From NCBI RefSeq assembly GCF_056712565.1, contig NZ_CM160072.1: DNA of 64,000 bases; one strand, written 5' to 3'. The notes beneath the pieces were generated by a model. It was given only the letters and a program-made list of their open reading frames with translations, was not told the DNA's origin and did no database searches. The position numbers were made by a program, and so were the translations under genes. Position 1 is the first letter of the stretch; every line of letters begins with the position of its first letter. Shown piece after piece: positions 1,457 through 36,260 of the stretch.

Positions 1457-1556
1457 TGCCGGATGCGGCGTGAACGCCTTATCCGGCCTACAAAGTCTTG
1501 CTAATTCAATATATTGCAGGGGCTATGTAGGCCTGATAAGCATAGCGCATCAGGCA
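1457..1556. repeat. REP/BIME-type extragenic palindromes (two copies)
   Basis: gccggatgcggcgtgaacgccttatccggcctaca and gtaggcctgataagcatagcgcatcaggca are typical E. coli REP units. Confidence 0.7.
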
Positions 1557-5469: not shown

Positions 5470-5503
5470 AAAAAAAGGCCCCTGTTGAAATTGCAGGGGC
5501 CTG
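5470..5503 (-). terminator. Rho-independent terminator downstream of cutC
   Basis: aggcccctg...caggggcct hairpin with an A-run on the plus strand (U-run on the minus-strand transcript). Confidence 0.6.
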
Positions 5504-5548
5504 GTACGAGCAAGCATCATATTGGGCGACATGATGCAACGGTAAAAA

Positions 5549-6304
<756 letters not shown>

Positions 6305-14807: not shown

Positions 14808-15668
14808 TTAATCCTTACTTAGCGCATACACCGTCTGACCACGCAGCGTGAAGCGGCGCTCAAGGTGGCTAAAGTTTTCAGAGTGACCCGCAAACAGCAA
14901 TCCGTCGGGTTTAAGGAGCGGAACAAAGCGGCGCAAAATCTTCTGCTGGGTAGTTTGATCGAAGTAGATCATGACGTTACGACAGAAGATCGCATCAAAC
15001 GGCCCCGGCACGGTGTACTGTTTCGCCAGTAAATTCAGCGGGGCAAAATCAACATAGTTCGCCAGCTCCTGACGCACGCGTACCAGCCCTTCATGCGGTC
15101 CCGTCCCTCGCATGAAATACCGTTGCAGTTGCTGCGGCGTCAGTTTTTTCAACTCTTCATGGCGATAAATACCGCTTCTGGCTTTTTCCAGCACTTCGGT
15201 GTCGATATCGCTGGCAAACACTTTCCAGCGTCCGGGCGCGGTGCCCAATGTATCAGCCAGCGTCATCGCTATGCTGTACGGCTCTTCGCCGGTTGAAGCC
15301 GCCGCGCTCCATACGCGATACTCGCCAGAACGGCGACGTGCGTGATCCGCGAGCAGAGGAAAATGGTGTGCCTCACGGAAAAATGCCGTCAGATTCGTGG
15401 TCAGCGAATTGATAAACGCCTGCCACTCACCGCTGTGCTGATTAGATTCCAGCAAGTTCAGGTAATGACCGAAATCCGCCAGTCCCAGCGCACGCAAACG
15501 ACGAACCAGTCGGTTGTAAACCATGTCGCGTTTATGGTCAGCCAGAACGATCCCGGCTCGTTGATAGATCAATTGACTTATCCGCCGAAAATGCGCGTCG
15601 GAAAGCGCCAGGCGCTCGGTCATCTGTAACAATAAAGACGTTTGCCCACAGGGCAGAGATGAAGTCAT
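14808..15668 (-). CDS. cheR: Chemotaxis protein methyltransferase CheR
   Basis: 286 aa, recognisable CheR sequence. Confidence 0.95.
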
Positions 15669-15686
15669 AGCGCCTTCTCAATCACT

Positions 15687-15913
15687 TCAGGATACCACTG
15701 GCGCAATTTGTAACTGCGCCGACTCATGTCGTGCTACTTCATGTTCTTCAAGGGTAAATACCGCCACACGCGACGAAAGATGGTCGGCCTGATTCAGTCG
15801 TTGCAAATCGTCGCGAAATGCCCAAAAGACATGCCGTTACTGCCAATCTGCAAGATCCCGCAGAGAATCAAAATTAAAAACAGCGTGGTCGAAATTCGAA
15901 TACGATTAAACAT
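15687..15913 (-). pseudogene. tap: Remnant of methyl-accepting chemotaxis protein IV (tap): N-terminal and C-terminal codons only
   Basis: Minus-strand ATG at 15913 encodes MFNRIRISTTLFLILILCGILQIGSNGMSF and stops after 37 codons; another frame reads FWAFRDDLQRLNQADHLSSRVAVFTLEEHEVARHESAQLQIAPVVS* ending 18 bp before cheR. Only 227 bp lie between tar and cheR where a full tap is ~1.6 kb. Confidence 0.8.
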
Positions 15914-15958
15914 CAACGCTCCCCATCAGGCGGCAATGACCGCTTTAGTAAATACTCG

Positions 15959-17620
15959 TCAAAATGTTTCCCAGTTTGGATCTTGTTCAGCAATTCGCAG
16001 TCGTGGCTGTGCCGGTGGTTGCTCACTGGCAGGACGGGATGGTGTTTGCGGTTTATTGGTGAGTGGGCTGGCTGCCAGACGGAACGCGGAAACCGCTTGC
16101 GTTAAACGACTCGCCTGTTCTTCCAGCGCAGCTGCGGCGGCAGCTGATTCCTGCACCAGCGATGCGTTCTGTTGCGTGACGCGATCCATTTCCGAAACCG
16201 CCAATGCGACTTGATCGATGCCACGGCTCTGTTCATCCGATGCTGATGCAATCTCGCCCATAATGTCAGTCACGCGAGTGACAGCATTGACGATATTGTT
16301 CATTGTTTCCCCAGCGCTTTCGACCAGCACCGAACCGGTATCAACGCGCGAGACGGAGTCTTCAATGAGGACTTTGATCTCTTTTGCCGCCTGTGCACTG
16401 CGACTGGCAAGATTACGCACTTCACCCGCCACCACGGCAAAACCACGGCCCTGTTCACCCGCTCGCGCGGCTTCAACAGCGGCATTCAGCGCGAGGATAT
16501 TAGTCTGGAAGGCAATACCATCGATAACGCTGATAATGTCGGCAATTTTCTTCGAACTATCGGCGATCTCATGCATCGTTTTCACTACGCCATCCACCAC
16601 TTTGCCGCCGTGCTGGGCGGTGTCGGAGGCACTTTGCGCCAGTTGCGAGGCCTGGCGGGCGTTATCGGCGTTTTGCTTCACTGTCGCGGTGAGCTGCTCC
16701 ATGCTGGCGGCAGTTTCTTCCAGCGCGGATGCCTGCTGTTCAGTACGGGAGGAAAGATCGGTGTTGCCCGCCGCAATTTCACGGGTACCGGCATAGATGG
16801 CATCTGAACCTTCGCGCACATGAGTGACGGTGTCAGTCAAAGAGCGTTGCATATGTGAAACGCTCTGCGCCAGGTCGCCCATTTCACTGCGCCCGTCAAT
16901 GGTCAGGGTATTCGCCAGGTTACCACCGGCAATTTCGCGAATATGCGCAATAATTTTTGCCAGCGGTGTAAGCAACATACGGCGAATGCCGTACCACGCC
17001 ACCAGCAGAATCAATACCACCACCAGCGCGATAACCGCCAGTTGCCACTGGGCAAATCGGTAATCATCTGCGTTGTCAGTGACGATATCGCGATACAGTT
17101 TTTCACTGCTGAGGGCGTACTGAGCAAACGCTTCGCCCATTGCATTTTGCATTCCCTGGGTTGGCTGAGCGAAATAAGCTCCAGTATTGCCATAATCAAG
17201 ATAATCAATCAGTTCAGTTAACGCTGTGTGATAGTTTTTATATTTTTCATCAATATTACGACTGGTAGCGACCATTTCAGGTAACGGTGCCATGCTTTTG
17301 AATTTTTTATAATGAGTCGCGGCCTGGGCCAATGTTTTCCTGGCACTATCGAGCAACTCAACTTTGGCATTACTTTGCTGATTGGATGAATCCATCATCA
17401 TCCGCACCGCTGAACGACTCAGGTTAATGCGCGTTTGTAGCATTAAATCCCATGTTGACGTCAGCTCGCCCTGCTGTTCCCGTAATTGATTGGAAACCAC
17501 AAAGCTCTTCTGGCTATGGTGAAGGGAAGAAAAAAACAGACTGCCGGAAATAAGCTGTAACAGTGCGAATACCCCCAGCACCATTACCAACAGCGTGACT
17601 ACGCGGATACGGTTAATCAT
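15959..17620 (-). CDS. tar: Methyl-accepting chemotaxis protein II (aspartate/maltose receptor) Tar
   Basis: ORF 15959..17641; start set at MINRIRVV (553 aa); HAMP and methyl-accepting domains; C-terminal NWETF pentapeptide. Confidence 0.9.
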
Positions 17621-17651
17621 AAGGCACCTTCCTGAAAACAAGTTGATCTCG

Positions 17652-17678
17652 TTATCGGCAAGGAGGGGGGAAACTTTA
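17652..17678 (-). promoter_or_regulatory. Sigma-28 (FliA) class III promoter for the tar operon
   Basis: Minus strand reads TAAAGTTT-N11-GCCGATAA, an exact match to the sigma-28 consensus, about 30 nt upstream of the tar start. Confidence 0.8.
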
Positions 17679-17708
17679 TTGCTGATGCCACCCGCCGCGA
17701 AATTGAAA

Positions 17709-17737
17709 TAAAAAACCCGATGCGCAGATCATCGGGT
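17709..17737 (-). terminator. Rho-independent terminator after cheW (end of motAB-cheAW operon)
   Basis: cccgatg...catcggg hairpin with an A-run on the plus strand (U-run on the minus-strand transcript). Confidence 0.65.
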
Positions 17738-17764
17738 TCATTTCAATTGAGGAAATCGGGAGAA

Positions 17765-21180: not shown

Positions 21181-21184
<4 letters not shown>

Positions 21185-22068
21185 GCTTCCTCGGTTGTCG
21201 TCTGTTGTTGCGGATTTTTCACCGCACGCACATGCTCTTCCAGCTCAATAAACGACGGACGTTCGCTGGAATAGAGCGTTTTGCGACCAAACTCAACGGC
21301 GATAGGCGGTGCGTAACCGTTCAGATTAGAAAGCAGAGTGACTTTGACGCACTGCATCATTTTGCTGGTTTCGGCGCTTTTCTGACGTAAAACACTCGCT
21401 AATGGGGAAATAAATCCGTAAGCCAATAAAATACCGAGGAAAGTCCCCACCATCGCATGAGCGATAAGCGCCCCCAGCTCGGCGGCAGGACGATCGGCTG
21501 AACCTAACGCGTGAACGACCCCCATTACAGCCGCAACAATACCAAACGCCGGAAGTGAGTCCCCGACCAGCGCCAGACTGTTCGCCGGGACTTCTGCCTC
21601 GCTTTCGTGCGTCTCAATCTCTTCATCCATCAGAGCTTCGATTTCGAAGGTGTTCATGTGACCGCTGATAATCAGGCGCAGATAATCGACGATAAATTCA
21701 AGCATGACGCTATCCGCAAGGATGCGTGGGTAGCTGGCGAAGATCTCGCTCTCACGGGGATTTTCAATATCGCGTTCCAGCGAAAACATCCCCATCTGCC
21801 GCGATTTCGCCATCAACCGATAAAGCAGAGCCAGCAGATCCATATACATTGCTTTGGTGTATTTGGAGCGACGAAACAGCAACGGCAGCGCCTTCAGCGT
21901 GCCTTTAATCGCTTTGCCATTATTGCCGACGATAAACGACCCAATCCCTGCACCGGCAATAATCACCAGTTCAGCGGGTTGATAGAGTGCTCCAAGGCTT
22001 CCACCGGTCATCAAATAACCGCCGAAAACTGTACCGAGAACAACCAGGTAACCTAATAAGATAAGCAC
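21181..22068 (-). CDS. motA: Flagellar motor stator protein MotA
   Basis: 295 aa, four-TM proton channel; 4-bp overlap with motB. Confidence 0.95.
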
Positions 22069-22194
22069 GACATCATCCTTCCACTGTTGACCATGACAGG
22101 ATGTTCAGTCGTCAGGCGTTAACACGCGATAGGGGCAAAAGAAAGCAGCGGTACATCGTTACCGCTGCTGGAATGTTTCGCCACACCGTATCAG

Positions 22195-22773
22195 TTAAAC
22201 AGCCTGTACTCTCTGTTCATCCAGCAGTTGTGGGATAATATCGGCAGGATTCTGGGAAAGTTTACGTCTTTTTACTGCCCGGGATGGCGGCTGACATAAG
22301 CTGCAGGCAAAGCTGCCAACAGGCTGGTGAGCATGGGTAATAAAATTGCCGCCGCAGCAGTTGCAGCTGGAAAGTTGCAGTAATCCACTTTCAACAAACC
22401 GCACCAATGTCCAGGCACGGGTTAATGCCAGCAGCGGTCCTTCTTCTGCTTGCGGGCACTGTTCAAGGTATAAACGGTAGGCTTTGATCACCGCATCGAC
22501 GCCATTACACAAGCCAGTTTTCAGTAAAAACTGCCATGCATTACAGAACATCGAAGCATGAACGTTTTGTTCCCAGGTCATAAACCAGTCGGTTGAAAAT
22601 GGCAGCATGCCTTTCGGCGGTGGGCTTCCGCGCAGTTCTTTATAGAGTTTTATCAGACGTCCGCGACTTAACTGTGTTTCGCTTTCCAGCATCTGCAAAC
22701 GAGCGCCCAGGGTGATCAATTCCATTGCCAGCTGAATATCCCGCGCTTCCTGAACAATGCTTTTTTCACTCAT
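22195..22773 (-). CDS. flhC: Flagellar master regulator subunit FlhC
   Basis: 192 aa with C-terminal Zn-binding cysteines (CSLCQP...CNCCGG). Confidence 0.95.
22239..22265 (-). promoter_or_regulatory. Sigma-28 promoter for motA, located inside the 3' end of flhC
   Basis: Minus strand reads TAAACTTT-N11-GCCGATAT (one mismatch in each element to the sigma-28 consensus); lies within the flhC coding sequence. Confidence 0.6.
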
Positions 22774-24340: not shown

Positions 24341-27693
<3,353 letters not shown>

Positions 27694-35957: not shown

Positions 35958-36044
35958 TGGTACCCGGAGCGGGACTTGAACCCGCACAGCGCGAACGCCG
36001 AGGGATTTTAAATCCCTTGTGTCTACCGATTCCACCATCCGGGC
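35958..36044 (-). tRNA. leuZ: tRNA-Leu (anticodon UAA)
   Basis: Reverse complement reads GCCCGGATGGTGGAATCGGTAGACACAAGGGATTTAAAATCCCTCGGCGTTCGCGCTGTGCGGGTTCAAGTCCCGCTCCGGGTACCA. Confidence 0.9.
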
Positions 36045-36056
36045 TCGGGAAGAAAG

Positions 36057-36130
36057 TGGAGGCGCGTTCCGGAGTCGAACCGGACTAGACGGATTTGCAA
36101 TCCGCTACATAACCGCTTTGTTAACGCGCC
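36057..36130 (-). tRNA. cysT: tRNA-Cys (anticodon GCA)
   Basis: Reverse complement reads GGCGCGTTAACAAAGCGGTTATGTAGCGGATTGCAAATCCGTCTAGTCCGGTTCGACTCCGGAACGCGCCTCCA. Confidence 0.9.
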
Positions 36131-36184
36131 AAATTCTTCAGGCCTTTCAGCCATACATCCGCTTGACGCCGATGTCTTTTAAAC

Positions 36185-36260
<76 letters not shown>

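Follow-up and report, generated by a model that had tools for sequence, protein, structure and literature searches.

A probable MotR orthologue and its sigma-28 promoter within the 3′ end of flhC in a B2-type Escherichia coli

The flhC-motA locus

The window, a 64,000-nucleotide stretch of contig NZ_CM160072.1 (RefSeq assembly GCF_056712565.1), carries on its minus strand, around 22-23 kb, flhD, flhC, motA and an ORF at the motB position, followed by cheA and cheW. The locus is from E. coli: a 281-nt query spanning the flhC-motA junction has matches in 5,376 of the 5,426 complete E. coli genomes searched, with flhC and motA annotated at every match, and is 100% identical to phylogroup-B2-type strains such as ATCC 11775, NU14 and MS7163. 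The two genes and the promoter elements between which our analysis moves are as follows.

22195..22773, minus strand: flhC coding sequence, 192 codons plus the stop TAA at 22197..22195 (from the ORF list and the annotation of the 5,376 matching genomes)
21181..22068, minus strand: motA, GTG start at 22068, first gene of motAB-cheAW (from the ORF list and the annotation of the matching genomes)
22257..22264, minus strand: sigma-28 -35 element TAAACTTT, in flhC codons 170-173 of 192
22238..22245, minus strand: sigma-28 -10 element GCCGATAT, in flhC Ala177-Asp178-Ile179, after an 11-nt spacer

The motif TAAACTTT-N11-GCCGATAT thus occupies 22264..22238 on the minus strand, with the -35 element beginning 67 nt ahead of the flhC stop codon. 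It has two mismatches to the sigma-28 consensus TAAAGTTT-N11-GCCGATAA, one in each element (7/8 for TAAACTTT against TAAAGTTT and 7/8 for GCCGATAT against GCCGATAA), and lies 163 nt upstream of the motA GTG on the same strand, with ORFs at the motB, cheA and cheW positions following. An initial annotation of this DNA had placed a near-consensus sigma-28 promoter at 22239-22265, inside the last ~25 codons of flhC; the motif and its placement are borne out, since it falls within the last 23 codons, and the coordinates are shifted by one base.

The whole window was scanned for the sigma-28 consensus with up to three mismatches, using 100 shuffles as control. Seven matches were found against 0.73 expected, a number that none of the 100 shuffles reached. 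Four of them are at the sites expected for class-3 flagellar promoters, upstream of tar, motA, fliC and fliD. The other three (at 25470, 57495 and 57899, with three mismatches each) are inside unrelated ORFs and look like chance noise.

The K-12 motA promoter, PmotA, has been described previously (Fitzgerald et al., 2014, PLoS Genet; 2018, Mol Microbiol; bioRxiv 10.1101/188474). It shares with the window the entire 27-nt promoter, its location in flhC codons 170-179 and the downstream operon, and no difference was found between the two promoters.

The MotR orthologue

A sigma-28-dependent sRNA, MotR, is known from the 5′ UTR of E. coli motA, as the initial annotation had stated. The published sequence, available from a T7 gBlock template and the cloning primer SM001, begins ACAACTGCTGG, ends in the terminator U-run and is 95 nt long (Melamed et al., 2023, eLife 12:RP87151). 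In the K-12 RefSeq annotation the ncRNA gene motR (b4828) is at 1977208..1977302 and overlaps flhC by 37 nt, so its geometry equals that of the corresponding segment in the window, where the following features were assigned.

22231, minus strand: start (+1 A) of MotR and of the motAB-cheAW mRNA, assigned by homology to the published MotR 5′ end ACAACTGCTGG
22137..22231, minus strand: MotR sRNA orthologue, 95 nt, of which nt 1-34 are flhC codons, nt 35-37 the flhC stop codon and the rest intergenic
22069..22136, minus strand: rest of the motA 5′ UTR, with the Shine-Dalgarno sequence AAGGA at 22080..22076

A22231 is 6 nt past the -10 element and 34 nt ahead of the flhC stop. Because the published MotR 5′ end maps to this nucleotide, motA transcripts would start within flhC, as had been proposed. 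Alignment finds the published sRNA present in the window, with 91 of 95 positions identical to K-12 motR. The expectation that the promoter needed for MotR would be conserved holds for more than the promoter: from upstream of the -35 element as far as MotR nt 48, start-site context included, the window and K-12 sequences are identical, and the sRNA itself differs by only four substitutions. These are A49U (22183), C54A (22178), C77U in the terminator loop (22155) and U91C in the U-tract (22141), the last giving UUUCUUUU instead of U8; the locus, the 5′ end sequence and the terminator stem are the same as in K-12. Rfam 15, against which the whole window was also scanned, is a database without a MotR family.

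We consider it very probable, from the sequence comparison with K-12, that this feature is the class-3 sigma-28 (FliA) promoter of motA, situated inside the 3′ end of flhC, and, with it, an orthologue of the Hfq-binding sRNA MotR. FliA-RNA polymerase would start at A22231, 11 codons before the flhC stop; some transcripts would end at the intrinsic terminator at 22169..22137, yielding the 95-nt MotR, while the remainder would pass the terminator and 68 further leader nucleotides into motAB-cheAW. Sequence identity, position, promoter and terminator anatomy, and conservation are directly established here. Both the promoter and MotR are already published and annotated in K-12, and the locus fits those accounts (Fitzgerald et al., 2014, 2018; Melamed et al., 2023). 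No observation made here speaks against the identification, which confirms that the published promoter and sRNA have been retained in this B2-type E. coli.

The binding of MotR to Hfq and its ability to raise flagellar number have been published in K-12 only, where seed nt 43-54 pair with sites inside rpsJ and fliC (Melamed et al., 2023). By homology, the start site, FliA dependence, Hfq binding and trans-acting function would probably carry over to the window strain. In the RIL-seq supplements for EPEC E2348/69, a related B2 strain, motR is listed, with nearly no expression under the conditions used.

MotR resembles the sRNAs UhpU, FliX and FlgO in being sigma-28-dependent, in having an Hfq-type 3′ stem-loop and in coming from the UTR of a protein-coding gene. 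Those three, however, derive from 3′ UTRs, two of them by processing, whereas MotR is a 5′ UTR product of premature termination that shares its promoter with the mRNA.

Terminator hairpin and U-tract

Two features make up the 3′ end of the MotR orthologue.

22144..22169, minus strand: MotR intrinsic terminator hairpin, nt 63-88, with a 10-bp stem (6 GC pairs) and a 6-nt loop (from terminator scan and MFE fold)
22137..22144, minus strand: interrupted terminator U-tract TTTCTTTT, with C at 22141; T8-T9 in K-12 and nearly all other species

The hairpin, GC-rich and followed by the T-run, is located 26 nt beyond the flhC stop codon and is the dominant element of the predicted MotR fold (-28.7 kcal/mol, z = -2.1). 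An alignment of 58 MotR regions (57 distinct) has 98.5% of cells paired in the terminator stem, with compensatory changes at three pairs (15 cells), above both shuffle and slide controls. The hairpin was counted as present in 5,376 of the 5,426 complete E. coli genomes. Every motAB-cheAW transcript depends on read-through of this strong terminator.

The interrupted U-tract is a peculiarity of few strains. UUUCUUUU was found in no other sequence among the 58 aligned, and an exact 36-mer containing it occurs in 114 of 5,426 complete E. coli genomes (~2%). Another strain with the B2-type seed, THO-006, has a U-tract of T7. Judging from the general features of intrinsic terminators and of Hfq binding to RNA 3′ ends, the interruption could reduce termination efficiency or Hfq binding.

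The seed allele and its pairing with rpsJ

Two of the four substitutions, A49U and C54A, are inside the seed, changing its core from GGUGAGGCGC in K-12 to GGUGUGGCGA in the window.

22178..22189, minus strand: MotR seed region, nt 43-54, ACGGUGUGGCGA in the window and ACGGUGAGGCGC in K-12

The seed was defined by the M1 mutant (GGUG to GCAC) together with a compensatory rpsJ-M1 template (Melamed et al., 2023). We computed duplex energies restricted to the seed, against the validated rpsJ site GCGCUUCACUGU; long-range RNAduplex predictions with full MotR against rpsJ were dropped, as they gave unrealistic extended duplexes. The predicted energies were as follows.

K-12 MotR seed: -22.4 kcal/mol
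A49U alone: -18.7 kcal/mol
C54A alone: -18.8 kcal/mol
Window allele (A49U and C54A): -15.1 kcal/mol
M1, the inactive mutant: -11.2 kcal/mol

Each of the two K-12 seed substitutions adds a base pair and about 3.6 kcal/mol to the rpsJ duplex, and the window seed keeps 10 of the 12 K-12 pairs with the site. In 5,425 of the 5,426 genomes rpsJ keeps at least 99% identity over its first 219 nt, which makes a compensating change in the target unlikely. For fliC, duplex prediction gave several candidate sites of -15 to -20 kcal/mol, with scores for the M1 mutant as good as those for wild type.

The sequence GGUGUGG with A54 is common to E. albertii, a divergent Escherichia, Salmonella and Citrobacter, and O157:H7 is intermediate (U49/C54). 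As these outgroups carry it, the window allele is the ancestral one, and the strong MotR-rpsJ duplex of K-12 appears, by this comparison, to be a derived state in which two base pairs were gained. Among complete E. coli genomes, a 36-mer spanning the seed has the exact window allele in 1,135 (21%), one mismatch to it in 588 (11%) and two mismatches in 3,651 (68%); K-12 also has two mismatches, the class being set by mismatch count alone.

In B2 strains such as that of the window, then, the MotR-S10 arm may be weaker or absent, going by these predicted duplexes. A stronger form of this doubt would be that the promoter drives motA and that the short RNA of the window strain, instead of regulating rpsJ in trans, arises chiefly as a by-product or by attenuation. 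The weaker duplex predicted for the ancestral seed, the near-identity of rpsJ that leaves little room for a compensating target, and the rarity of the UUUCUUUU tail all lean that way. Yet the seed GUGUGG is conserved across Enterobacteriaceae, which argues for function, an energy of -15 kcal/mol remains plausible for an sRNA duplex, and MotR is reported with Hfq in the RIL-seq of Salmonella and EPEC (Melamed et al., 2023); we judge the by-product explanation unlikely, while still giving it some weight. MotR has so far been characterized in K-12 alone, with a seed that departs from the ancestral, B2 form at two positions, and this difference poses the question of whether the S10/antitermination circuit runs in extraintestinal pathogenic lineages.

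Conservation of the promoter at the DNA level

One genome per species with FlhC was taken, giving 80 loci from Escherichia to Serratia, Pectobacterium, Erwinia and Pantoea. The motif TAAACTT[T/A]-N11-GCCGATAN is found exactly 67 nt before the flhC stop in 78 of these 80 Enterobacterales species, with the spacer length of 11 nt equally constant (78/80). In Enterobacter cloacae DSM 26481 (locus L068, about 2009-2034) the spacer is 10 nt instead of 11 by a one-base deletion that also shifts the flhC frame after residue 173; the strain may be a naturally non-motile mutant, or the deletion may stem from an error in the assembly.

Codon use was then compared among 71 full-length flhC genes, one per species. 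Among 144 conserved degenerate positions, just 16 have the same codon in 97% or more of the species, and 13 of these 16 are within codons 167-187, at 167-172, 177-178 and 182-187. The first group corresponds to an A-rich stretch and the -35 element, the second to the -10 element and the third to MotR nt 2-19. The -35 codons CGT-AAA-CTT are 100% invariant, with CTT used for Leu172 in 71 of 71 species, as are the -10 codons GCC (Ala177) and GAT (Asp178), whereas the mean share of the top codon elsewhere in flhC is 0.62. Fixation of synonymous sites in the promoter codons indicates that selection acts on the DNA, beyond the encoded protein.

The A-rich stretch just upstream of the -35 element (22267-22275, codons 167-169, GTA AAA AGA) has GTA and AAA in 100% and AGA in 86% of the 71 species, and may be an extended or UP-like promoter element.

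The K-12 site has been called the most conserved FliA promoter, constraining FlhC Ala177-Asp178, and FliA binding and FliA-dependent transcription there have been documented by ChIP-seq, lacZ fusions and RNA-seq (Fitzgerald et al., bioRxiv 10.1101/188474). Our codon analysis reproduces that conclusion and slightly extends it, as invariance is also seen in codons 167-169 and 182-187.

Could the motif be kept solely for its FlhC residues (Lys-Leu-Ser ... Ala-Asp-Ile), its likeness to a promoter being incidental? Residues K171, L172, A177 and D178 are indeed 100% conserved, but so are the synonymous choices CTT, GCC and GAT; residues 174-176, between the promoter elements, are poorly conserved; and a D178A variant of FlhC is fully functional, at a site which FliA binds and from which it transcribes (Fitzgerald et al., bioRxiv 10.1101/188474). 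The published mutagenesis and the synonymous-site pattern refute an explanation by protein constraint alone, leaving it very improbable. Still less credible is a chance sigma-28 match without function, for which one might point to the three of seven window matches in unrelated ORFs: the motA match has only two mismatches, with the right orientation and distance to the gene, and chance is excluded by its identity to the experimentally mapped K-12 promoter and its fixed position in 78 of 80 species.

A candidate antiterminator in the MotR 5′ end

The motA promoter does not account for the codon invariance over MotR nt 2-19. The 5′ end of the transcript contains a perfect complement to a segment that overlaps the terminator.

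22220..22227, minus strand: MotR nt 5-12, CUGCUGGA, hypothetical antiterminator strand, in flhC codons Leu183-Leu184-Asp185, perfect complement of nt 60-67
22165..22172, minus strand: MotR nt 60-67, UCCAGCAG, partner strand, comprising 3 nt (UCC) outside the stem and the first 5 nt of the terminator 5′ arm

The partner strand UCCAGCAG is nearly invariant in the 58 aligned sequences, including the UCC external to the stem. In predicted nascent transcripts of 67-84 nt, the helix between nt 5-12 and nt 60-67 has P of 0.91-0.97 for both the K-12 and the window allele; at 88 nt, when the 3′ arm is complete, the predicted terminator beats the alternative helix by 3.2-3.8 kcal/mol. Folds for about 60 species also predict the alternative helix (P of at least 0.95), although their spacers vary. 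A MotR derivative, MotR*, with UGC at positions 6-8 changed to GAG, has been described as a "more abundant derivative identified by chance", with no mechanism offered (Melamed et al., 2023); the change abolishes the predicted helix (-12.8 with the helix forced, versus -26.0 for the terminator form).

These folding predictions suggest a tentative model, to which we give clearly less than even credence: the sigma-28 transcript might carry an intrinsic antiterminator in its first 12 nt (ACAACUGCUGGA), a stretch of flhC codons. The transcript 5′ end would pair with UCCAGCAG(CGGU), in the terminator 5′ arm, and so would set the ratio of MotR to motAB-cheAW mRNA. The combination of an antiterminator made from flhC codons with a lineage-specific MotR seed, taken as one joint reading, is likewise possible but doubtful.

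Controls and phylogenetic comparison were less favorable than the folds. No pair of the alternative helix is changed on both sides, 6 of 10 tested pairs never vary and 97.2% of cells are paired; with both strands invariant, there is no covariation. Upstream sequences, once shuffled, pair with the arm at a mean P of 0.57, and only 0.8% of them reach the observed value (ddG p ~0.1); the support from this control is weak, and random upstream sequences often pair with the GC-rich arm. A search for an analogous pairing of 5′ end and terminator in Pectobacterium, Brenneria and Serratia found none. Pectobacteriaceae retain the 5′ segment without its partner strand. As the hairpin differs in these three genera, covariation at the level of architecture is not supported.

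In Serratia, Pectobacterium and Brenneria (loci L070, L072-L078 and L080) the promoter inside flhC is kept, and the hairpin is different and longer, with a poor U-tract and without UCCAGCAG. For the 5′ end of the Pectobacterium transcript, the prediction is local pairing with CGCAGU, which lies within the final flhC codons.

An antiterminator, if real, would explain the synonymous fixation of MotR nt 2-19 in the 71 species, the invariant UCC outside the terminator stem and the higher abundance of MotR*, and would make a neat case of a coding sequence doubling as a regulatory RNA element. Our literature search found no paper proposing an antiterminator in MotR; read-through has been speculated to be mediated by S10/NusB (Melamed et al., 2023).

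Leader attenuators built from a terminator and an antiterminator are well known, examples being the trp, pyrBI and bgl leaders. The MotR leader is like these in having, between promoter and first gene, an upstream segment (nt 5-12) that can pair with the terminator 5′ arm. It is unlike them in that the helix takes in no more than 5-7 of the 10 arm nucleotides, without covariation, and in that, to our knowledge, the leader has no sensing input. The likeness is a resemblance only, and we do not claim membership in this class.

Other features of the motA leader and the window

In the motA leader, a pyrimidine box, CATCCT (22098-22103), is complementary to the Shine-Dalgarno region AGGATG (22074-22079). 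The MFE hairpin of the leader covers the Shine-Dalgarno sequence and part of the GTG (-21.8 kcal/mol). As an anti-Shine-Dalgarno hairpin it was rejected, with z of only -1.29 and no counterpart in the RNAalifold result over 28 species.

A perfect sigma-28 consensus lies directly upstream of the tar ORF, at 17678..17652 on the minus strand, and an Rfam match to the C0465 sRNA (17668-17745, plus strand) runs antisense across it. Next after the tar ORF (15959..17641) comes cheR (14808..15668), with no tap ORF of at least 120 aa between them in 14808-17641, whereas the K-12 gene order is tar-tap-cheR.

Within 46252-48231, divergent sigma-28 motifs are found at 48112..48086 (minus strand) on the fliC side and at 48205..48231 (plus strand) on the side of the ORF at the fliD position. 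The flagellin ORF fliC encodes 585 aa, and 41 of 530 positions, from -70 to +460 relative to the start codon, differ from K-12 fliC. Rfam matches reaching the gathering score include MicL, ES036 and three tRNAs, at 5470-5777 (minus strand), 1492-1534 (plus strand) and 35961-36260 (minus strand), and are consistent with the E. coli chromosomal region from cutC to fli.
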